From the NCBI GenBank assembly GCA_963713975.1, contig OY970218.1:2592001-2656000 (forward strand): 64,000 bases of DNA, written 5' to 3'. Position 1 is the stretch's first letter. The number at the start of each line of letters is the position of its first letter. Positions 1-12,112 of this stretch are shown here, piece by piece. Position numbers and translations under genes: made by a program. This DNA is from an uncultured Chloroflexia bacterium. GTDB lineage: Bacteria; Chloroflexota; Limnocylindria; Limnocylindrales; CSP1-4. The notes below the pieces were generated by a model. That model was not told the origin of the DNA, did no database searches, and saw only the letters and a list, made by a program, of their open reading frames with translations.

Positions 1-3000
1 GAGGTCACCACGCAGGACGGGTATCCGGCACTGCTCCTGCGCGGCGACGCCAACCCGGTCGCCGACCGTGCGGTCATTCCGCTCGACAGCCTCGTCGGTC
101 GCGTCTCGGCGGTTGTGCCGGCTGCGGGATACCTCCTGTGGGCGCTCAGCCGGCCCGAGGGCATCGCCACCTGGGCAGCGGTTGCGTGCCTCCTGCTGCT
201 CGGACTTGCGGCTGCTGGTGGGACTGGCGGTCGGAAGCCCCACCGGGGTGCACGCCTCTGGCGGGCGATGCGGGGGGGTCGCCTCAGAGCCCCGGCGATG
301 GCGCTCCGGCGTGCGATGTGGCTTGGCCTCGACCAGCCTGCCATGGCCGCCGTGATCTTCGTCGTGCTGGTCGCGGGCGGGAGCTCGACCCTGGCATCCG
401 CCGCCATCTTCACCACGTCGGCCACGGTCGGCGACAACACCTTCAGCACCGGGACCTGGTCCGCGAGTGCCTATCGCTCGGTGGCCAGCGGTGCCTGGGC
501 CGACCCGGCGACGTGGCAGCGGCATAACGGGGTTGGCTGGGTGTCTGCCACCAGGCCGCCCGAATCCATGGACGGCGTGGTGACCGTGGGCAGTGGCCAT
601 GTCGTGACCGTCGAACGGCCGGTGGCCGTCGATGAGGTCGTTGTGGCCTCTGGAGGCCAGCTTGCCGTGGCGGATGGCGTGATCCTTACCGTCGAGGACG
701 GCTCGGGCGCGGACCTTGGCATCGCGGGCACGTTCGACACGATCGGGACGACGACGCTCGATTCCGGGGCGGATGTCGCGATCGAGAGCGGCGGGCTCCT
801 CGTCGTGTCGGGGACCCTCGATGGCGCGGGATCCCTCACCGGGCGGTCGGGCACGCTCCAGGCGAGCGGAGGCGCACGATCCATCCCGGTTCCGGTGATG
901 CTCGAGACGTCCCTGACCGTTGCCGGAACCGAAGGCATGTCGCTCGGGGACGAGGTGGGCGGTACCGGCGCGCTCATCAAGAACGGCACCGGCACCCTGA
1001 CCCTGGGTGGCGCCAGCACCTACACCGGGGCCACCACCGTCAACGCCGGCACCCTCCGGCTGGGGACCGCCAACGCGATCGGCCCGTCGAGCGCGACCAC
1101 GGTCGCCGCGGGCGCGGTGCTCGATCTCGCGGGCCACGACGAGACCCTGGGCTCGCTCGCCGGGGCGGGCACGGTGACCAGCGGGGTGCCCGGCGCAGTG
1201 ACCCTGACCGTGGGCGGCAACGGCGTCGGCACCGGCACCTTCTCCGGGCTGCTCGAGGACGGGGGCGGCCAGCTGGCCCTGGTCAAGACCGGCACCGGCA
1301 CCCTGACCCTGTCGGGCACCCTCAGCACGTACACGGGGACCACCACGATCAGCGCCGGCATCCTCTCGGTCAGCAACGACCGGGCGCTCGGTGCCGTGCC
1401 ACTCGTTCCGTCCCCGGGCCGGCTCGTGATCGGCACCGCCACCCTGGCCACCACCGCGACGTTCACCCTCGACGCCGACCGGGGCATCGCGACCAGCGGC
1501 ACCAGCACCGTCTCGGCGGGCACCGGCACCACGCTCACCTACGGCGGGACCATCGCGGGCACGGGAGCGCTGGCCAAGACCGGCACCGGCACCCTCGTCC
1601 TGTCGGGTGCCAGCACGTACACGGGGACCACCACGATCAGCGCCGGCATCCTCTCGATCGCGGACGACACCGCCCTGGGCGCCGTCCCGGACTCGCCCAC
1701 GCCGGGCCGGCTCGTGATCGGCACCGCCACCCTGGCCACCACCGCGACGTTCACCCTCGACGCCGACCGGGGCATCGCGACCAGCGGCACCAGCACCGTC
1801 TCGGCGGGCACCGGCACCACGCTCACCTACGGCGGGACCATCGCGGGCACGGGAGCGCTGGCCAAGACCGGCACCGGCACCCTCGTCCTGTCGGGTGCCA
1901 GCACGTACACGGGGACCACCACGATCAGCGCCGGCATCCTCTCGATCGCGGACGACACCGCCCTGGGCGCCGTCCCGGACTCGCCCACGCCGGGCCGGCT
2001 CGTGATCGGCACCGCCACCCTGGCCACCACCGCGACGTTCACCCTCGACGCCGACCGGGGCATCGCGACCAGCGGCACCAGCACCGTCTCGGCGGGCACC
2101 GGCACCACGCTCACCTACGGCGGGACCATCGCGGGCACGGGAGCGCTGGCCAAGACCGGCACCGGCACCCTCGTCCTGTCGGGTGCCAGCACGTACACCG
2201 GGATCACCACCATCAGCGCGGGGGTCATCCGGGTGCAGCACGAGAGCGCCCTGGGCTCCACGGCCGGCGGCACCACCGTCACCTCGGGCGCGGCGATCGA
2301 GATCGACGGCAGCGGCCTCGCCCTCGCCCTCGCCGACGCGATCACCAGCCTCAACGGCACCGGCGTGGGCGGCACGGGCGCGATCCGCAACCTGGCCGGC
2401 GCCAACAGCTGGTCGGGGGCGATCACGATGGCCGCGAACTCCACGGTCAGCACCGACGCCGGCACGCTCACCCTCGGAGCGATCGCCGGCAACACCCGCA
2501 CCCTGACCATCATCGGGGCCGGGAACACGACCATCGGCGGCGTGATCGCCACGACCACCGGCGCGCTCATCAAGAACGGCACCGGCACCCTGACCCTGGG
2601 TGGCGCCAGCACCTACACCGGGGCCACCACCGTCAACGCCGGCACCCTCCGGCTGGGGACCGCCAACGCGATCGGCCCGTCGAGCGCGACCACGGTCGCC
2701 GCGGGCGCGGTGCTCGATCTCGCGGGCCACGACGAGACCCTGGGCTCGCTCGCCGGGGCGGGCACGGTGACCAGCGGGGTGCCCGGCGCAGTGACCCTGA
2801 CCGTGGGCGGCAACGGCGTCGGCACCGGCACCTTCTCCGGGCTGCTCGAGGACGGGGGCGGCCAGCTGGCCCTGGTCAAGACCGGCACCGGCACCCTGAC
2901 CCTGTCGGGCACCCTCAGCACGTACACGGGGACCACCACGATCAGCGCCGGCATCCTCTCGGTCAGCAACGACCGGGCGCTCGGTGCCGTGCCACTCGTT

Positions 3001-6000
3001 CCGTCCCCGGGCCGGCTCGTGATCGGCACCGCCACCCTGGCCACCACCGCGACGTTCACCCTCGACGCCGACCGGGGCATCGCGACCAGCGGCACCAGCA
3101 CCGTCTCGGCGGGCACCGGCACCACGCTCACCTACGGCGGGACCATCGCGGGCACGGGAGCGCTGGCCAAGACCGGCACCGGCACCCTCGTCCTGTCGGG
3201 TGCCAGCACGTACACGGGGACCACCACGATCAGCGCCGGCATCCTCTCGATCGCGGACGACACCGCCCTGGGCGCCGTCCCGGACTCGCCCACGCCGGGC
3301 CGGCTCGTGATCGGCACCGCCACCCTGGCCACCACCGCGACGTTCACCCTCGACGCCGACCGGGGCATCGCGACCAGCGGCACCAGCACCGTCTCGGCGG
3401 GCACCGGCACCACGCTCACCTACGGCGGGACCATCGCGGGCACGGGAGCGCTGGCCAAGACCGGCACCGGCACCCTCGTCCTGTCGGGTGCCAGCACGTA
3501 CACCGGGATCACCACCATCAGCGCGGGGGTCATCCGGGTGCAGCACGAGAGCGCCCTGGGCTCCACGGCCGGCGGCACCACCGTCACCTCGGGCGCGGCG
3601 ATCGAGATCGACGGCAGCGGCCTCGCCCTCGCCCTCGCCGACGCGATCACCAGCCTCAACGGCACCGGCGTGGGCGGCACGGGCGCGATCCGCAACCTGG
3701 CCGGCGCCAACAGCTGGTCGGGGGCGATCACGATGGCCGCGAACTCCACGGTCAGCACCGACGCCGGCACGCTCACCCTCGGAGCGATCGCCGGCAACAC
3801 CCGCACCCTGACCATCATCGGGGCCGGGAACACGACCATCGGCGGCGTGATCGCCACGACCACCGGCGCGCTCATCAAGAACGGCACCGGCACCCTGACC
3901 CTGGGTGGCGCCAGCACCTACACCGGGGCCACCACCGTCAACGCCGGCACCCTCCGGCTGGGGACCGCCAACGCGATCGGCCCGTCGAGCGCGACCACGG
4001 TCGCCGCGGGCGCGGTGCTCGATCTCGCGGGCCACGACGAGACCCTGGGCTCGCTCGCCGGGGCGGGCACGGTGACCAGCGGGGTGCCCGGCGCAGTGAC
4101 CCTGACCGTGGGCGGCAACGGCGTCGGCACCGGCACCTTCTCCGGGCTGCTCGAGGACGGGGGCGGCCAGCTGGCCCTGGTCAAGACCGGCACCGGCACC
4201 CTGACCCTGTCGGGCACCCTCAGCACGTACACGGGGACCACCACGATCAGCGCCGGCATCCTCTCGGTCAGCAACGACCGGGCGCTCGGTGCCGTGCCAC
4301 TCGTTCCGTCCCCGGGCCGGCTCGTGATCGGCACCGCCACCCTGGCCACCACCGCGACGTTCACCCTCGACGCCGACCGGGGCATCGCGACCAGCGGCAC
4401 CAGCACCGTCTCGGCGGGCACCGGCACCACGCTCACCTACGGCGGGACCATCGCGGGCACGGGAGCGCTGGCCAAGACCGGCACCGGCACCCTCGTCCTG
4501 TCGGGTGCCAGCACGTACACGGGGACCACCACGATCAGCGCCGGCATCCTCTCGATCGCGACGACACCGCCCTGGGCGCCGTGCCCGGACTCGCCCGTCG
4601 CCGGGCCGGCTCGTGATCGGCACCGCCACCCTGGCCACCACCGCGACGTTCACCCTCGACGCCGACCGGGGCATCGCGACCAGCGGCACCAGCACCGTCT
4701 CGGCGGGCACCGGCACCACGCTCACCTACGGCGGGACCATCGCGGGCACGGGAGCGCTGGCCAAGACCGGCACCGGCACCCTCGTCCTGTCGGGTGCCAG
4801 CACGTACACGGGGACCACCACGATCAGCGCCGGCATCCTCTCGATCGCGGACGACACCGCCCTGGGCGCCGTCCCGGACTCGCCCACGCCGGGCCGGCTC
4901 GTGATCGGCACCGCCACCCTGGCCACCACCGCGACGTTCACCCTCGACGCCGACCGGGGCATCGCGACCAGCGGCACCAGCACCGTCTCGGCGGGCACCG
5001 GCACCACGCTCACCTACGGCGGGACCATCGCGGGCACGGGAGCGCTGGCCAAGACCGGCACCGGCACCCTCGTCCTGTCGGGTGCCAGCACGTACACCGG
5101 GATCACCACCATCAGCGCGGGGGTCATCCGGGTGCAGCACGAGAGCGCCCTGGGCTCCACGGCCGGCGGCACCACCGTCACCTCGGGCGCGGCGATCGAG
5201 ATCGACGGCAGCGGCCTCGCCCTCGCCCTCGCCGACGCGATCACCAGCCTCAACGGCACCGGCGTGGGCGGCACGGGCGCGATCCGCAACCTGGCCGGCG
5301 CCAACAGCTGGTCGGGGGCGATCACGATGGCCGCGAACTCCACGGTCAGCACCGACGCCGGCACGCTCACCCTCGGAGCGATCGCCGGCAACACCCGCAC
5401 CCTGACCATCATCGGGGCCGGGAACACGACCATCGGCGGCGTGATCGCCACGACCACCGGCGCGCTCATCAAGAACGGCACCGGCACCCTGACCCTGGGT
5501 GGCGCCAGCACCTACACCGGGGCCACCACCGTCAACGCCGGCACCCTCGACGTCAACGGGAGCACCGCCGGCGGCGGGTTCACCGTGGCGGCTGGTGCCA
5601 CGCTGGGAGGCTCCGGAACCGTCGGTGGAACGGTCAGCGTCTCGGGCACGCTGAGCCCTGGCTCATCCGCCGGGCGGCTGACGAACGGTGCGCTGACGCT
5701 GGTCGCAGCGTCCACGTTCGCCGTCGAGATCGGTGGCACGACGCCCGCCAGCCAGCACGACCAGGACCGCGTTGCCAGCGGCGCGATCACGATCGGCGCT
5801 GGCGTCCAGCTCTCGCTGGTCACGATCGGAGGCTTCACTCCGACCATCGGCCAGACGTTCCTGATCCTCGACAAGGCGTCCGCCGGCGCGATCAGCGGCA
5901 CCTTCACCGGCCTCCCCCAGGGCTCGACGATCGCGACGTTCCTGGGCAGCGCGCTGAGCGCGCAGATCAGCTACACCGCCGGCGATGGCAACGACGTGGT

Positions 6001-6019
6001 GCTCACGGTCCTGCCCTGA
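1..6019 (+). CDS. Giant surface protein, 5'-truncated by the window: SipW-type signal peptidase C-terminal half + TM + SipW-cognate signal peptide + autotransporter-associated beta-strand (PATR-like) repeats; apparent frameshift at ~4560-4600
   Basis: Frame +1 is open from base 1 (EVTTQDGYPALLLRGDANPVADRAVIPLDSLVGRVSAVVPAAGY) and runs into ORF 115. It carries many LxKxGxGTLxLxGxSTYTGxTTxxAG repeats. After a net +1 indel the repeat protein continues in ORF 4505..6019, ending ISYTAGDGNDVVLTVLP-stop. Confidence 0.85.
964..5549 (+). repeat. Nested intragenic tandem repeats: three large units (1593, 1305, 1594 bp) containing 3, 2 and 3 copies of a 288-bp module
   Basis: ACCGGCGCGCTCATCAAGAAC recurs at 964, 2557, ~3862 and ~5456. 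Antisense ORF boundaries repeat every 288 bp (1539, 1827, 2115). Copies look nucleotide-identical by eye except at 4560-4600. Confidence 0.95.
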
Positions 6020-6268
6020 CCGTCCGCGGATCCCGTCCTCGGTGCGTTGACGCACCGGGCGCGCGGCCTTCGACCGGCCGGCGGGGCACGTCGGCGAACG
6101 AAGGTACTCCCGCCGATGGCCCCTCCGGCTGGTGCGCACGGTCACGCCGATCCTGTCCACTACGGCGAACCGCGAGCAGCGTCGGGACGATGACCTTCGG
6201 GCAGCCGGTAGCGCGGCCGAACGACGGCCCCGACGGGCGCGGCAGCTCATATGGGAGCATGAAGCAAA

Positions 6269-6853
6269 TTGACCCAGCACCAGCCATTCCCGCCCCTTGC
6301 GGGCCGCTCTTGGTGGCGCCACGGCCAGGTCGCCCTCATCGCAGGCTCGCTGGTCGCCATGATCGGCGCCGGTGCGATGTCACTTGCAACGTTCACCGAC
6401 AGTGAGGCGTCCACCGGCTCATGGACGGCGGGCACGATCGTGCTCGGCGTAAGCCCGACGACCACATTCACGGCAAACAACATCATGCCCGGCGACACCG
6501 GCAGCCAGGACCTCACCGTCTCGAACAACGGGACCGGCGCCCTGCGCTATGCGATGTCGGGCGCCTCCACCAACCTTGACGGACTCGGGCTCGCGGCCCA
6601 GGTGGCCCTGACCATCCAGGCGGGCACCTGCGCCTCCCCGACGTCCACGTTGTTCGTCGGCACCCTCGCGACGGCTGCCCTCGGCAGCAACGCCACCGGG
6701 CAGGACACGGGCGACCGCCCGGTCGCGGCTCAGGCCTCCGACAGCCTGTGCTTCACGTGGGACTTCCCGCTCGCTTCCGGCAACGCCTTCCAGGGCGCGG
6801 CCACGGGCACCACGTTCACGTTCGACGCCGAGCAGACCGCCAACAACCCGTAG
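6269..6853 (+). CDS. tasA: TasA/CalY-family secreted fibre subunit with SipW-cognate signal peptide
   Basis: Hydrophobic leader, then GAMSLATFTDSEASTGSWTAGTI, NIMPGDTGSQDLTVSNNGTGALRY and a C-terminal NAFQG...FTFDAEQ. Adjacent to sipW. The TTG start is uncertain. Confidence 0.8.
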   Translation: MTQHQPFPPLAGRSWWRHGQVALIAGSLVAMIGAGAMSLATFTDSEASTGSWTAGTIVLGVSPTTTFTANNIMPGDTGSQDLTVSNNGTGALRYAMSGASTNLDGLGLAAQVALTIQAGTCASPTSTLFVGTLATAALGSNATGQDTGDRPVAAQASDSLCFTWDFPLASGNAFQGAATGTTFTFDAEQTANNP

Positions 6854-6870
6854 CCTGATCGTTCCAGCCC

Positions 6871-6908
6871 GATCGCGCCCGCTCCCCATCGCCGGGGCGG
6901 GCGCGGTC
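6871..6908 (+). terminator. GC-rich stem-loop between the tasA-like gene and sipW (attenuator or mRNA stabiliser)
   Basis: GATCGCGCCCGCTCCCC pairs with GGGGCGGGCGCGGTC, with one bulge. No U-tract. Confidence 0.5.
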
Positions 6909-6929
6909 CCGTCGGTGGAGCCCTGCGTC

Positions 6930-7574
6930 ATGTCCATCGCCACGATCACGATCCGGATCCTGCGGCGCACGATCGATGTGGCCCTGCTGCTTCTGATCGT
7001 GCTCGTGCTCGGAACCCTCGCCATCTCGAAGGTCGTGCCCTCCGTCACCGGCGGCACGACCTTCGTCGTCCAGGGCGGATCGATGCAGCCCGCGATCCCA
7101 TACGGATCCGCCGTGATCGTGACCCCGGTGGGCCCGGGCGAGCTCCGGTCGGGCGACGTCGTCAGCCTCCGGGTGGGCGAGCGGCGGCTGGTGTTCACGC
7201 ACCGCATCATCCGGCTCGTTCCCCGCGACGACGGCCTGTGGCTCGAGACCCGGGGGGACGCCAACACCGACCCCGACCCGGCGCTCGTGCCGGCATCCGC
7301 GGTGATCGGCAGGCTCGCTGCCACGATCCCCGTTGCCGGCTACGCCGTTGCCCTGCTCGGATCCGTTTCAGGGATTGCTTTCGTCGTGGCGCTCGCATGC
7401 GCCCTGCTGATGGGCGGTGGCCTCCTCGGCGGGCTTGACGCGGAGCGGCGCGCGGAACGCCTCCGCCCGGTTCCCAGCCCGGTCCCCGGCCGGCAGGCGG
7501 GAGTCCACCGGCTTCCCCGGGATCGTCGGAGCCGGCGACCCGTTGTCCCTCCGCCCGTCGTCCGGGAGGTCTGA
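6930..7574 (+). CDS. sipW: Signal peptidase I, SipW/ER-type (Ser-His)
   Basis: N-terminal TM, VQGGSMQPAIPYGS, FTHRI, TRGDANTDPD and a C-terminal TM. GGAG precedes ATG 6930. Confidence 0.9.
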   Translation: MSIATITIRILRRTIDVALLLLIVLVLGTLAISKVVPSVTGGTTFVVQGGSMQPAIPYGSAVIVTPVGPGELRSGDVVSLRVGERRLVFTHRIIRLVPRDDGLWLETRGDANTDPDPALVPASAVIGRLAATIPVAGYAVALLGSVSGIAFVVALACALLMGGGLLGGLDAERRAERLRPVPSPVPGRQAGVHRLPRDRRSRRPVVPPPVVREV

Positions 7575-7693
7575 CCACACGGGGGTGGCGCTGCGCCGGC
7601 CGGCCGCACGCACGTAACGACCGCCCGCCGCGCATGCGAGGTGCGATCATCCCGGCTGCGGAGCCAGCGAGTCGACTCGACGAGGTGCTGAAG

Positions 7694-9007
7694 GTGGGCG
7701 ACGGCCGGACGATCGTGTTCTTTCCCGAGGGCGCCTACGGACCGACCAACAACTGCGCCGGCATCGGCAGCGTGCTGCGGGAGCGCGGCCACCGGGTCGT
7801 GTTCATCGTGGAGGAGTCCTTCGCGGGCAGCCTGGAGGCGAAGGGCTTCGAGGAGCGCCTGATGCGCCTGGGTCCGCCACCCGCGGAACCCGAGGTCCCG
7901 GGCCAGTTCTGGATCGACTTCATCCGGGACACGGCGCCTGTCTTCCGCAAGCCCACGATCGAGCAGCTGGGCGAGTTCATCGCCCCCACCTTCCAGGCCC
8001 TCATCGACGGCGCGAAGCACGTCCACCCGCGCCTCCTGGAGATCATCGACGAGCTCCGGCCGGACGCGATCGTGGAGGACAACGTCGTCAGCTTCCCCGC
8101 GATCATGGCGAGCGGCCGTCCGTGGATCCGGCTCCTGTCGTGCAACCCCGCCGAGATCAAGGACCCGCTGGTGGCCCCGTTCTCGTCCGGCTATCCAGTC
8201 GCGGACAGGGCTGGCTGGCCGGCCTTCCTCGAGGAGGTCGGGCGGACGCATCGCGAGCTCTGGGCCGACTTCGACGCCTTCTGCCGGGACACTGGTGCCG
8301 GCGGCCTGGCGTGGGGCGCGAATGGCCCCGACTTCATGCACGAGTCGCCGTACCTCAACCTGTACTCGTACCCGGAGGAGGTCGACTACGCGCGAGCGGC
8401 GGCGCTGGGGCTCACCTGGCATCAACTGGACTCCACGGTTCGTGCGGCGGACGCGGGGTGGGAGCTGCCGGAGGCCCTGGCGAACCGGAAGGGAGCCCTG
8501 ACCTACCTCTCCCTGGGCAGCCTGGGATCCGCCGACGTGGGCCTGATGCAGCGGCTGGTGGACGTCCTCGGCCGGACGGAGCATCGCGTGATCGTGTCCA
8601 AGGGCCCGCTCGCGGACGAGATCACGCTCCGCGACAACATGGCCGGCGAGGGCTTCCTGCCGCAGCCCGCGATCCTGCCCCTGGTGGACCTGGTGATCAC
8701 GCACGGCGGCAACAACACCGTGGTCGAGTCCTTCCACCATGGGAAGCCGATGGTGGTGCTGCCCCTGTTCTGGGACCAGGTCGATAACGCCCAGCGCGTG
8801 GACGAGACGGGATACGGCCGACGCCTGGCCACCTATGACTTCGCCGACGAGGAGCTGACCGGGGCGATCGATGCGCTGCTGGCCGACACCGGGCTGCGCG
8901 GGCGCATGGCTGCCATCTCGGCGCGCATGAAGGCTGCCGACGGGACCAGGAAGGCGGCCGACCTCATCGAGCGTGTCGCGATCACGGGAGCGCCCGTCAC
9001 GCGGTAG
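7694..9007 (+). CDS. GT1-family UDP-glycosyltransferase (MGT-like)
   Basis: YLSLGSLG and PQPAILPLVDLVITHGGNNTVVESFHHGKPMVVLPLFWDQ signature. The start may lie further upstream (ORF from 7634). Confidence 0.85.
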   Translation: MGDGRTIVFFPEGAYGPTNNCAGIGSVLRERGHRVVFIVEESFAGSLEAKGFEERLMRLGPPPAEPEVPGQFWIDFIRDTAPVFRKPTIEQLGEFIAPTFQALIDGAKHVHPRLLEIIDELRPDAIVEDNVVSFPAIMASGRPWIRLLSCNPAEIKDPLVAPFSSGYPVADRAGWPAFLEEVGRTHRELWADFDAFCRDTGAGGLAWGANGPDFMHESPYLNLYSYPEEVDYARAAALGLTWHQLDSTVRAADAGWELPEALANRKGALTYLSLGSLGSADVGLMQRLVDVLGRTEHRVIVSKGPLADEITLRDNMAGEGFLPQPAILPLVDLVITHGGNNTVVESFHHGKPMVVLPLFWDQVDNAQRVDETGYGRRLATYDFADEELTGAIDALLADTGLRGRMAAISARMKAADGTRKAADLIERVAITGAPVTR

Positions 9008-9146
9008 CGGGCCGTCGCACGGGACGGTCCTCGCTGGAACACGCGCGGAGACTGGAGCACAATCGGCGCACGCACCCTCGTCCGCGGCCAGAGCGCCGGC
9101 CAGAGCGCCGGCCCGAAACGCCAGCTTGCGCCCCTTGGAGGCCCTC

Positions 9147-10601
9147 GTGACCGAGACCCTGAACTCCGTCAAGTCCTACCAGCAGCTCATCGGCGGCCAG
9201 TGGGTGGACGCCGCTTCCGGCGAGACGCTGGCCGTCGAGAACCCGGCGTCGGGGGTCCAGGTCGCCACCGTGCCCGCCTCCGGCCAGGAGGACGTGGATC
9301 GTGCCGTGGATGCGGCGGCGGACGCCTTCGAGACCTGGTCGCTGACCACACCCCAGACCCGCAGCCTCGCGCTGCTCAAGATCGCGGACATCCTCGATGC
9401 CAACGCCGACGAGCTCGGCCGCCTCGAGTCCCGCCAGACCGGCAAGCCCACCGTGGCTGCCATCGACGAGATGGCCGTTTCGAGCGACCTGTTCCGGTTC
9501 TTCGCCGGCGCCTGCCGGGTCATGGATGGCCTCGCGGTCACCGAGTACCTCGAGGGCCACACCTCGATGGTTCGTCGGGACCCGGTCGGCGTGGTGGCGA
9601 GCATCGCGCCCTGGAACTACCCGCTCTACATGGCGGCCTGGAAGCTCGGCCCGGCCCTGGCGACCGGCAACACCGTCGTCCTCAAGCCCGCGGCGCGCAC
9701 GCCGCTGTCCGCCTTGCGGTTCGCCGAGCTGGTCGCGGATGCGCTGCCGGCCGGCGTGCTCAACGTGCTGACGGGCTCGGGTGGTGAGATGGGCGACCTG
9801 CTCGTCGGGCACCCCAAGGTCCGGATGGTGTCCATCACGGGCGACACCTCGACCGGCAAGCACATCGCGACCGTCGCGGCGGGCACCGTCAAGCGGCTCC
9901 ACCTGGAGCTGGGCGGCAAGGCGCCGGTCATCGTGTTCGACGACGCCGACGTGGACCTCGCGGCCGAGATCCTCAAGTCCGCGGGCTACTGGAATGCCGG
10001 TCAGGACTGCACCGCCGCGTGCCGCGTGATCGCCGGTCCGGCGGTATACGACAAGCTCCTGGCCGCCCTCTCGGACCAGGTCCGGACGATCAAGTGGGGC
10101 AACCCTGCCGATGCCGACGACCTGGACATGGGCTCCCTGATCGCGCAGGCCCAGGCCGACAAGGTGGAGGGCATGGTCAACCGGGCGCTCGAGGCCAAGG
10201 CGGAGCTGGTGCTCGGCGGTCACCGGCCCGACCGTCCCGGCGCCTACTTCGAGCCGACCATCCTCGCCAACCCCGACCAGCACAGCGAGATCGTCCAGGA
10301 CGAGGTCTTCGGCCCGGTCGTCACGGTCCAGCGCTTCGCAGACGAGGAGCAGGCCGTGCAGTGGGCGAACGACGTCAAGTTCGGCCTCTCGTCCTCGCTG
10401 TTCACGGGCTCCATCGGCAAGGCGATGCGCGTCGCCCGGCGGCTCCAGTTCGGGACAGTCTGGATCAACGAGCATTTCACCCTCGCCAGCGAGACCCCGC
10501 ACGGCGGCGTCAAGGAGTCGGGCTACGGCAAGGACGGGAGCAAGTACGCGCTCGAGGACTACACGACGGTGAAGCACATCACGATCAACACGGGCGTCTG
10601 A
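9147..10601 (+). CDS. NAD-dependent aldehyde dehydrogenase, gamma-aminobutyraldehyde dehydrogenase-like
   Basis: IAPWNYPL, LELGGKAP, NAGQDCTA and EVFGPV motifs. GGAGG precedes GTG 9147. Confidence 0.88.
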   Translation: MTETLNSVKSYQQLIGGQWVDAASGETLAVENPASGVQVATVPASGQEDVDRAVDAAADAFETWSLTTPQTRSLALLKIADILDANADELGRLESRQTGKPTVAAIDEMAVSSDLFRFFAGACRVMDGLAVTEYLEGHTSMVRRDPVGVVASIAPWNYPLYMAAWKLGPALATGNTVVLKPAARTPLSALRFAELVADALPAGVLNVLTGSGGEMGDLLVGHPKVRMVSITGDTSTGKHIATVAAGTVKRLHLELGGKAPVIVFDDADVDLAAEILKSAGYWNAGQDCTAACRVIAGPAVYDKLLAALSDQVRTIKWGNPADADDLDMGSLIAQAQADKVEGMVNRALEAKAELVLGGHRPDRPGAYFEPTILANPDQHSEIVQDEVFGPVVTVQRFADEEQAVQWANDVKFGLSSSLFTGSIGKAMRVARRLQFGTVWINEHFTLASETPHGGVKESGYGKDGSKYALEDYTTVKHITINTGV

Positions 10602-12112
10602 AGCTGATCGATCGCGCGTCTGTCTCGGCGGCGGTCGGCGCCCTCGACCTCGAGGATCTTGCCGCCCGGCGGTGGTACGCCGCCAAGGGCACGGTGCCCA
10701 TCTCGGCGCGCCTGGCGCACGCGTTCCTGCTCGCCCCCGACGCGGCCCTGGCCCTCGTGGACCTGGCGGTGGGGGAGGCGGGCGATGGGAACGCCCGGCG
10801 CGACCGGTACGCGATCCCATTCGTGGTCCGCCGCGGCTCCGTGCGCGAGGCGGTCGAAGGCGACGGTGCCTGGCGAGCCCTCGCCGTCGCCATCGCCGAG
10901 GGTCACACCATCGGGGCCCTCGAGCGTGTTGGCGAGACGGGAGCGCCCGATGCCGCCCTGGTCTGCCGTCCGGCTCCGGGATTCGGGCCGGCCTGGGCTG
11001 CGGACGCGGCAGGGGGCGAGTACGCGGCAGGGGGCGAGGAGGGGACGTTCGGGCCCCTTGCCGAGGCGGAGGAGACGGCCCTCGGTCGCGACCAGTCGAA
11101 CACGTCGGCAGTCATCGGCGGCCGCCTGCTGGTGAAGGCCTATCGACGGCTCCAGCCCGGGCTCAACCCGGACCTTGAGCTGACCGCCTACCTGTCGGAG
11201 GAGGTGGGCTTTCCCGGCGTACCGCGGCTCGCCGGTTGGGCCGAGGCGGTGACGCGCGACGGAGGCGTGGCCACCGTGGCCATGCTCCAGGCCTTCGTCC
11301 GGGATGCCGACGACCTCTACGAGCAGACCGCCGAGCAGCTGGCGGAGCTCGTGGCGGCTCCGGGCGCCGTGTCCCTGGAATGGGCGACCGAGGTTGCGGC
11401 TGATCTCGGGATCCTCGTTGCCGGGCTGCACGCCGCCCTGGCCACGCCACCCGCGGAGGCGCCGGACCTCGCTCCCCGGGACGCCACCCACGACGAGCTC
11501 AAGGCCTGGCGGCACGACGCCCACCGCCAGCTCAACCTTGCGATCTCGGCCGTGACGGCCGTGGATCCGGTCGCCGGTGCAGAGCTCCGGGACGAGGCCG
11601 CCGCGATCGCCTCCCGCTTCTCCCGGTTCGAGGCCGTGGCGACCACCCCACGGCTGATGAGGATCCACGCGGACCTGCACCTGGGCCAGATCCTGGTGGC
11701 GGACGATGGCTATCGCGTCATCGACTTCGAGGGCGAGCCGCTGCGCCCGATCGATGAGCGCCGGCGCCCGGACTCCCCGCTGCGGGACGTGGCGTCCCTG
11801 CTGCGCTCGCTGGACCACGTGGCGCGCAGCGCACGACGGAGGGCCGAACGGCGCGCGGGCGGTCCGATCGAGGAGCCCGGGCTGGACGTCGAGGCATGGA
11901 TCGAGCGGGCCCGGGCCCGCTTCCTCGAGGCGTACGCGGATGGCCTGCGGCGCGCCGGTGCACCGATCGCGCTGGACCTGGACCTGCTCGACGCGTTCGA
12001 GGTGGCCAAGGAGGCCTACGAGTTCGTGTACGCGGCCACGGTGCTCCCGTCATGGCTCTGGGCCGCGAGGGAGGGGATGCGCTGGCTGCTGGCGCACGGC
12101 GAGCCAGGCTGA
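10598..12112 (+). CDS. Maltokinase (Mak/Pep2)-like phosphotransferase
   Basis: RRWYAAKG, DQSNTS, RIHADLHLGQIL, IDFEGEP, DVASLLRS and KEAYE motifs. The start is non-canonical and uncertain. Confidence 0.8.
   Translation: MKLIDRASVSAAVGALDLEDLAARRWYAAKGTVPISARLAHAFLLAPDAALALVDLAVGEAGDGNARRDRYAIPFVVRRGSVREAVEGDGAWRALAVAIAEGHTIGALERVGETGAPDAALVCRPAPGFGPAWAADAAGGEYAAGGEEGTFGPLAEAEETALGRDQSNTSAVIGGRLLVKAYRRLQPGLNPDLELTAYLSEEVGFPGVPRLAGWAEAVTRDGGVATVAMLQAFVRDADDLYEQTAEQLAELVAAPGAVSLEWATEVAADLGILVAGLHAALATPPAEAPDLAPRDATHDELKAWRHDAHRQLNLAISAVTAVDPVAGAELRDEAAAIASRFSRFEAVATTPRLMRIHADLHLGQILVADDGYRVIDFEGEPLRPIDERRRPDSPLRDVASLLRSLDHVARSARRRAERRAGGPIEEPGLDVEAWIERARARFLEAYADGLRRAGAPIALDLDLLDAFEVAKEAYEFVYAATVLPSWLWAAREGMRWLLAHGEPG

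Follow-up and report, generated by a model that had tools for sequence, protein, structure and literature searches.

What does a signal peptidase do when it is translated in one piece with a giant beta-helix protein, among genes for TasA-like fibre subunits? The question is raised by a stretch of 64,000 nucleotides (the window, G000:C1:2592001-2656000; contig OY970218.1) from an uncultured Chloroflexia bacterium of the Limnocylindrales, whose genome of 3.62 Mb forms a single contig with 70-75% GC in this region. An additional 12 kb of upstream DNA was inspected. Four genes follow each other on the + strand, namely tasA1, sipW1 fused to the beta-helix protein or adhesin (sipW1::adhesin), tasA2 (the 6269 gene) and sipW2 (the 6915 gene). 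The answer towards which we lean, with slightly more confidence than doubt, is that the beta-helix protein, made of PATR repeats, starts or caps the fibre in the manner of TapA once it has been cut from its own peptidase, within a system of the TasA/SipW type.

TasA fibres are a model for Gram-positive biofilm scaffolds, and their start, anchoring and decoration are still debated. A peptidase made in one chain with the protein that it cuts would demonstrate a physical link between cleavage and the start of the fibre. Culturable Actinomycetota (Rhodococcus, Glutamicibacter and Arthrobacter) have the same layout, so that the idea can be tested at the bench. For the window itself, the outcome is a corrected gene model and the reassignment of the likely partner gene to tasA1.

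A signal peptidase fused to a beta-helix protein

Both peptidases match the NCBIfam model TIGR02228 (79.2 bits for SipW1 and 78.0 bits for SipW2; cut-off 51.85) and contain SGSM, THR and GDAN motifs, which we take to be the catalytic Ser, His and Asp motifs, as in Bacillus SipW. They miss the Bacillus SipW equivalog model NF046067 (56.7 and 71.1 bits versus a cut-off of 190). Judged by these scores, SipW1 and SipW2 are the same kind of enzyme as Bacillus SipW and not its orthologue.

A sequence-only reading of the window had proposed a SipW-adhesin fusion, and the proposal holds. SipW1 runs into the beta-helix without a stop codon, as a single open reading frame (ORF), and the linker between peptidase and passenger is conserved (L-W-R...W-L-G-L-D-x-P). 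Because this linker contains no Met in the metagenomic homologues P0006 and P0007, a separate start of the passenger is unlikely. The peptidase is also fused in four of the five orthologous loci and in three metagenomic proteins. By its sequence, the fusion is genuine.

An AlphaFold2 (AF2) model of the first 422 residues of the fusion (predicted local distance difference test, pLDDT, 68.7) contains helices at 2-36, 141-163 and 202-220, with a beta-rich domain between the first two, a segment of low confidence (221-245) and then a confident and regular beta-helix. With the model covering SipW1 to the N-terminal domain, Foldseek finds nothing at E <= 0.001; the structure ranked first, not significant by its E-value, comes from the human signal peptidase complex, of which it is the catalytic subunit (7p2q_A, E 3.2e-3, prob 1.00). 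If the Arg-rich loop lies inside the cell, the third helix runs outward through the membrane, in the manner of an internal signal peptide.

A predicted donor strand behind the cleavage site

SipW-type leaders had been ascribed to both substrates, the adhesin and the 6269 protein, and they are found. Three sites of the type S-x-A|x-F are predicted, in TasA1 (S-L-A|L-F), TasA2 (S-L-A|T-F) and the adhesin (S-A-A|I-F). A profile of 90 TasA2-family proteins run against the whole genome recovers three places, which are TasA2 (E 6.3e-66), TasA1 (E 7.3e-56) and the leader plus strand of the adhesin (window 340-462, E 3.4e-4). According to the abstract of PMC10269814, Phe at P2' makes TasA a substrate of SipW rather than of LepB. 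Conservation in the adhesin does not end at the predicted cut. S222 and A224, then N235, F237, G240 and W242, are invariant in six of six aligned orthologues. The extension 225-244 has a pLDDT below 50 in the AF2 model and is therefore not packed on the beta-helix. Both the conserved residues past the cut and the profile match support the earlier suggestion that the mature N-terminus of the adhesin could be a TasA-type donor strand.

Co-folding of TasA1 (residues 30-186) with adhesin residues 225-264 (three runs, three controls, own alignments) points in the same direction. The interface score ipSAE (interaction prediction score from aligned errors) is 0.75 (runs 0.75, 0.80 and 0.72), and the best control gives 0.01; the mark applied is reached by 116 of 157 solved complexes and by 2 of 215 mismatched pairs, counts that are approximate given the own alignments. 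At least 93% of contacts recur between runs, and the partner pLDDT is at least 62. Adhesin residues 225-244 face TasA1 residues 44-64 and 163-181, and the contact pairs 171:237, 173:235 and 177:230 place the strand antiparallel to the C-terminal (last) strand of TasA1. The same geometry is described for the donor segment of TasA, D31-S41 with A230-N220, in a passage of PMC10151520. The predicted complex supports strand binding by a TasA-like subunit and, together with the profile match, gives the adhesin a TapA-type N-terminus in the model. The earlier proposal that the adhesin could donate its strand to a TasA-like subunit is supported by the predicted placement of 225-244 in the groove; the partner folded was TasA1, not the 6269 protein. 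Evidence on the accepting TasA is in fact split, gene linkage favouring TasA1 and strand similarity the TasA2 type, while two of the orthologous loci (G181 and G273) have a single TasA.

The TasA-like subunits

TasA2 scores 50.0 bits with PF12389 (gathering cut-off 22.5), and TasA1 has no precomputed Pfam match. At E <= 0.001, TasA2 has 552 relatives, some of them named 'TasA family protein', and TasA1, member of a rare subfamily, has 22. Homologues from Candidatus Limnocylindrales or Chloroflexota are named 'TasA family protein' or 'signal peptidase I', and an actinobacterial origin of the DNA, to which the GC content might point, was rejected on the strength of these names. The AF2 model of TasA2 (90-row alignment, pLDDT 85.6) leaves residues 37-58 unstructured. 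With Foldseek, it matches a single structure at E <= 0.001, the fibre of TasA itself (8aur_A, E 6.3e-5, prob 1.00, query TM-score 0.50); two TasA monomers (5of1 and 5of2) and 7ueg, an archaeal bundling pilus, rank lower. This top match agrees with the TasA-like fold that had been proposed for the 6269 protein. In sequence, 8aur_A is matched by the TasA2-family profile over the donor-strand region (E 9e-11) and by the TasA1 profile at E 0.032. With its PF12389 score, its predicted jelly-roll beta-sandwich like that of TasA and its SipW-type leader, TasA2 belongs by sequence and predicted fold to the TasA/camelysin family.

The start of tasA2 deserves a comment. The genome's own call (P0011, 164 amino acids, aa) begins at Met31 and would cost the leader its charged n-region. 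Since homologues cover the query from about residue 1-10, the TTG at 6269 is preferred. Elsewhere, three proteins (P0175, P0179 and P0214) combine TasA-like domains with SdrD_B plus Laminin_G_3, with RCC1/DUF5122 propellers or with preceding NHL/propeller repeats; there, binding heads sit on the fibre subunits themselves. In P0175 and P0179, both relatives of TasA2, the lectin or propeller domains come behind the TasA domain.

Linkage in relatives

A search among longer proteins gave five matches at E <= 0.001 from 8000 scored candidates. The full architecture recurs, at 50-55% identity, in P0006 (793 aa, complete, ending like the adhesin here), P0007 and P0008. P0009 has SipW joined to Ig-like domains instead of a beta-helix, and the fifth match is unrelated. 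Queried with the N-terminal part of the adhesin, ten of the 258 other genomes of the family respond (0/24 in the same genus and 0/42 in the sister family), five of them strongly (E <= 1e-52) and five through the beta-helix cap only.

The five strong loci define what is conserved. In three of them (G139, G236 and G234), a tasA1-type gene lies directly upstream, the peptidase is fused to the adhesin, and the tasA2-sipW2 pair is elsewhere, 270 kb away in G139 and on another contig in G236 and G234. The order is tasA - sipW - sipW::adhesin in G273. In G181 it is tasA - sipW - adhesin, as separate overlapping genes, with a single TasA and an adhesin whose leader is an ordinary N-terminal one. Thus, tasA is directly upstream in 5/5 orthologous loci and the peptidase is fused in 4/5. 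No other flanking gene is common to the module loci whose flanks were compared (L106-L113). The triplet of adhesin, 6269 and 6915 genes on which the sequence-only reading was built is contiguous only here, in one of six adhesin-bearing genomes; the gene conserved beside the adhesin is tasA1, which the window does not include.

Passengers are swapped in relatives, as had been anticipated. Examples are the Ig-like domains of P0009, the actinobacterial passengers and a 304-aa protein in G010, a different leader-bearing product encoded behind the tasA2-sipW2 pair and parted from it by one in-frame TAG. A search of the present genome with the protein that follows sipW in G010, run without a positive control, found nothing. 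Another locus, L109 (G194:C2:238500-257000), has tasA-sipW-tasA and behind it a subtilisin-like protease with an attached beta-helix, which carries the N-terminal cap motif of the adhesin (Y/F-R-S...T-G-x-W...T-W).

The beta-helix, its broken frame and the corrected gene model

Three open frames are called at the locus within the window, 1..6405 (running off the 5' end), 6269..6853 (194 aa) and 6915..7574 (219 aa). All are on the + strand, in keeping with the three co-oriented genes described earlier. The first cannot be kept as a single gene. The window cuts sipW1, whose GTG start lies 266 nt upstream of the first base and overlaps the tasA1 stop (GTGA), and the adhesin changes frame at 4560-4598. 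Past the patch, frame 1 up to 6405 encodes Arg/His/Pro-rich nonsense and was rejected as protein; the beta-helix resumes in frame 2, which is open from 4505 to 6019 and takes up the repeats. The sipW1::adhesin gene ends with the TGA at 6017-6019, and a gap of 249 nt separates it from tasA2. Because the adhesin ends at 6019, its supposed overlap with the 6269 gene is absent (Table 1).

Table 1. Coordinates of the module (window positions unless a genome position is given; TM, transmembrane segment)
Feature	Position	Strand	Remarks
tasA1	genome G000:C1:2591177-2591737	+	just upstream of the window; 186 aa
sipW1, 3' part	1..405	+	fusion residues 90-224: GDAN motif, TM2, Arg-rich loop, third helix
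Predicted SipW site S222-A-A224 / I225-F226	400..411	+	cut between bases 405 and 406; small residues at -3/-1, Phe at P2'
Mature adhesin N-terminal extension	406..465	+	residues 225-244, IFTTSATVGDNTFSTGTWSA; TasA-type donor-strand-like
PATR beta-helix passenger, frame 1	406..4559	+	1384 residues; pLDDT ~90 from residue ~250, regular short strands
Near-identical DNA repeats	964..5459	+	offsets 288, 1305, 1593 and 2898/2899 nt
Frame-shifting patch	4560..4598	+	three single-nucleotide indels plus a substitution; reading continues in frame 2
Adhesin C-terminal part, frame 2	4599..6019	+	472 residues, three more PATR units; ends ...GDGNDVVLTVLP then TGA
tasA2	6269..6853	+	TasA-family subunit, 194 aa; TTG start, predicted cleavage after A40
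sipW2	6915..7574	+	stand-alone signal peptidase I of the archaeal/endoplasmic reticulum (ER) type, 219 aa; GSM, THR and GDAN motifs

PATR repeats dominate the passenger. Pfam PF12951 matches it at E 5.1e-11 and 1.1e-27, and TIGR02601 repeats are present too. The mature adhesin (1384 + 472 residues) contains 12 strict PATR-like motifs (9 + 3), with 21% Thr, 18.5% Gly and no Cys. At the DNA level, 1702-3255 recurs exactly at +1305, and Tandem Repeats Finder reports 288-nt arrays. When the copy at 964-2560 is aligned with that at 3862-5459 (~1.6 kb), exactly four differences appear in otherwise identical DNA: one nucleotide is missing at 4560, one extra nucleotide each stands at 4583 and 4597, and 4598 carries a substitution. 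An indel patch within otherwise identical copies looks, on sequence grounds, like a local consensus error.

The opposite view is that the adhesin is a pseudogene in this genome, a decaying copy beside the genus-common tasA2-sipW2 pair, which alone would work; the mechanism could still operate in relatives. This is a serious possibility, though we give it well under an even chance. Three indels fall within 38 nt, the tail of the metagenomic homologue P0008 is out of frame too, and within the genus, where the adhesin query found nothing in 24 other genomes, tasA2 is present in 20 of 60 other genomes. Yet outside the patch the 1.6-kb copies are 100% identical, the frames stay open to the C-terminus shared with P0006, such a pattern fits a local consensus error in a repeat, and the G139 orthologue is intact at 2128 aa.

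The C-terminus also bears on how the protein might be held at the cell. It shows no LPXTG, SLH domain, TM segment or beta-barrel, and the last 469 residues match only PATR in Pfam. A true autotransporter was considered and rejected. The C-terminal beta-barrel translocator of type V systems is missing, and EprS and ShdA are matched only locally, within passenger regions, at scores far under the cut-off. A sortase-assembled pilus was likewise discarded. The C-termini (...LTVLP, ...ANNP and ...AGNP) are without LPXTG, and the three sortase genes of the genome are at least 45 kb from the locus, with none at the locus itself. Instead of sortase anchoring, the three helices of SipW1 might tether an uncleaved beta-helix, perhaps with the base of the fibre, to the membrane. 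The missing anchor motifs, the conserved fusion and a module without any other anchor gene would fit such a tether, which we nevertheless hold to be very improbable: the S-x-A|x-F site does not vary, the peptidase keeps its motifs, and the adhesin of G181 is a separate gene with an ordinary leader, so that a SipW tether is not required.

Upstream of the module are genes of an ATP-binding cassette transporter. On its 3' side (window 7634-12112), a GT1/GT28-type glycosyltransferase, an aldehyde dehydrogenase and a maltokinase-cap-like ORF follow, none of them kept beside the module in relatives.

How the module may work

The conserved core is tasA1 - sipW1 - giant PATR beta-helix protein, here with the commoner tasA2-sipW2 pair directly downstream. 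The fused polypeptide is ordered as TM1, peptidase, TM2, Arg-rich cytoplasmic loop, signal-peptide helix, S-A-A|I-F, a strand of ~20 residues and a beta-helix of ~1850 residues. Cleavage, strand insertion, fibre formation and adhesion are steps that we infer, and they could proceed as follows. The bond between A224 and I225 would be cut by SipW1 acting on its own chain or else by SipW2. The signal helix would remain on the peptidase and the strand would be freed outside the cell, where it could fill the acceptor groove of a TasA-like subunit, as the N-terminus of TapA does in Bacillus. The beta-helix would then cap, and probably nucleate, the groove end of the fibre.

This polarity changes one element of the sequence-only reading, which had put the beta-helix at the tip. 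Since the protein only donates a strand, its place should be the groove end, like that of TapA, and this could be the base of the fibre. Whether the cap marks tip or base would depend on where the fibre grows. A more elaborate scheme, which we regard as improbable, has three tiers. The strand of SipW1::adhesin, cut in cis, would load TasA1 as an adaptor, whose own strand would prime a shaft of TasA2; uncut leaders would tether new subunits until SipW releases them, with growth at the base and the beta-helix at the tip. If true, signal-peptide cleavage would gate polymerization, and the dedicated, sometimes fused peptidases of these fibres in Chloroflexota, Actinomycetota and bacteria of the candidate phyla radiation would be explained.

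Several observations weigh against a TapA-like cap. Run against the genome at E <= 0.05, the TasA1-family profile finds the two TasA genes only and not the adhesin leader. As the TasA2-family profile does find it, the adhesin strand is nearer to the general TasA consensus than to the strand of TasA1 itself. TIGR04088 of NCBIfam matches neither TasA1, TasA2 nor the adhesin leader at E <= 0.1. The motif behind the cut could be a recognition element for SipW instead of a donor strand. The co-fold, being a model, may pass by its likeness to the solved TasA fibre, and it is blind to the choice between TasA1 and TasA2, given that close cousins of a true partner also pass. The label 'adhesin' derives from PATR repeats only, no cell anchor was found for the protein or in the module, a scan of 5900-7800 for promoters and terminators returned 0 and 0 sites, and the frameshifted product would be defective in this assembly if the break is real.

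Some of these points also speak for simple co-secretion, with the beta-helix as one more SipW substrate, a matrix or surface protein outside the TasA fibre, and a TasA-like N-terminus that reflects recognition by SipW. Many unrelated passengers carry leaders linked to SipW, the leader counts in NCBIfam as a class of signal peptide (TIGR04088/04089), and the profile of the neighbouring TasA1 misses the adhesin leader. Against this stand a conservation that reaches ~20 residues past the cut (to N235, F237, G240 and W242), which is the length of the TasA donor segment, a co-fold that puts exactly residues 225-244 in the groove and the tight linkage of tasA in 5/5 orthologous loci. Co-secretion is thus an unlikely account, although a better one than a membrane tether, and the TapA-like starter or cap is the reading retained below.

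A wider survey of SipW loci

Eighty loci from named genomes, each encoding a SipW relative, were surveyed. A TasA-like match with two family models is present in 51/80, a TasA-like gene lies directly upstream of the peptidase in 40/80, and 31/80 have two or more peptidases. In 17/80, a single ORF joins the peptidase to a second helix, a site of the A-A-F type and a passenger. These calls come from 27 long-ORF tails read by eye, of which an automatic rule flagged six and missed clear cases. Eight candidates were rejected as fusions: L018 (out-of-frame run-on), L015 (tandem peptidases), L027, L028, L039 and L071 (coiled-coil tails), and L041 and L084 (stop-to-stop frames extending beyond a partly matched domain). 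L046 and L067 were left out as ambiguous. The 17 fused loci are mostly from Actinomycetota, with the layout tasA-sipW-tasA-sipW::X.

In a quick tree of SipW sequences, the fused peptidases of Limnocylindria form one clade (Shimodaira-Hasegawa approximate likelihood-ratio test, 97), separate from both SipW2 and the fused clade of Actinomycetota. Seven changes of the 'fused' label are needed on this tree; strongly supported branches alone force one.

Other arrangements were encountered on the way. L015, from a metagenome-assembled genome (MAG) of Chloroflexota (JAJPGV010000035.1, ~2000-9100), has three TasA-like ORFs followed by four tandem SipW paralogues, an array much larger than that of the window. 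L027, L028, L039 and L071, from Oscillospiraceae-type MAGs, encode SipW with a long Glu/Lys/Ala-rich coiled-coil tail after TM2, presumably cytoplasmic. In L045, L070, L076, L081 and L091, from Solirubrobacteraceae MAGs, tasA-sipW is followed by a frame of 700-1030 aa with a TasA-like domain in its C-terminal half, an accessory design that recurs as well.

Comparison with known systems

The closest parallel is the tapA-sipW-tasA operon of Bacillus subtilis, as far as the passages of the cited papers describe it. Both systems have a TasA-family subunit, a dedicated peptidase of the archaeal/ER type and an accessory protein with a TasA-like strand which SipW exposes or, here, is predicted to expose, and which has been modelled in the TasA groove. 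According to a passage of PMC9674648, TasA polymerizes via residues 28-38, the N-terminus of TapA resembles that strand, and AlphaFold-Multimer puts it in TasA. A passage of PMC10151520 states that TapA donates its N-terminus, probably acting at initiation only. The differences are clear. The order here is tasA-sipW-accessory, the accessory protein is fused to the peptidase via an internal signal peptide, its body is a PATR beta-helix of ~1850 residues and not the Ig-like domain of TapA, and TasA and SipW each have two paralogues. The Bacillus equivalog model NF046066 gives 15.5 bits here versus a cut-off of 450, and Pfam and NCBIfam scans of the adhesin parts for a TapA core domain gave PATR-type matches only. 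The beta-helix protein would therefore work like TapA, as modelled, but is not a member of the TapA family.

Archaeal-type fibres offer a second comparison. For AbpA/AbpB of Pyrobaculum, a passage of PMC9245690 proposes that AbpB gives the first strand while its distal domains are an adhesin, and notes that PF12389 occurs in Chloroflexota. In the parts of a preprint that deal with AbpX/Tafi loci (bioRxiv 10.64898/2026.01.04.697558), these encode signal peptidase I (SPase I), sometimes fused to DUF5305, minor subunits and predicted tip proteins, the last of which AlphaFold3 co-assembles by donor-strand complementation. These papers anticipate a strand-donating accessory protein that starts the fibre and has adhesin-like distal domains; unlike here, the passages on AbpA/AbpB, AbpX and Tafi mention no PATR passenger, and SPase I is fused only to DUF5305, not to a substrate. 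In the full-text passages of the wider literature, supplements aside, neither a SipW-substrate fusion nor a PATR passenger was found described, the nearest case being SPase I with DUF5305.

Chaperone-usher pili (FimH, FimG/FimF) share donor-strand exchange and one end specialized as an adhesin, and FimG is among the weak fold matches of TasA2. Their polarity is opposite, FimH accepting a strand and donating none whereas the adhesin here can only donate. There is no usher, periplasmic chaperone or outer membrane, and the families are unrelated. With autotransporters, the protein shares PF12951/TIGR02601 repeats and local similarity to the passenger regions of EprS and ShdA; it differs in lacking a beta-barrel and in its internal SipW-type leader for export in a probably monoderm phylum.

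Similar fusions are known from Rhodococcus, Glutamicibacter, Gordonia, Williamsia, Arthrobacter and further Actinomycetota, with SipW, linker, second hydrophobic helix, A-A-F-type site and passenger in one ORF. Their passengers are short (~200-350 aa) and partly Thr/Pro-rich, and three of the four scanned gave no Pfam match (weak fn3 in L093). The fused peptidase is the last gene of these loci, and their clades are separate from those of Limnocylindria in the quick tree.

The general concept of TasA-superfamily loci with a signal peptidase and predicted tip proteins is already in print, and the candidate new surface appendage of the sequence-only reading was an overstatement. Collectively, the comparison places the locus as a variant of the Bacillus biofilm-fibre system, not as a new kind of appendage.

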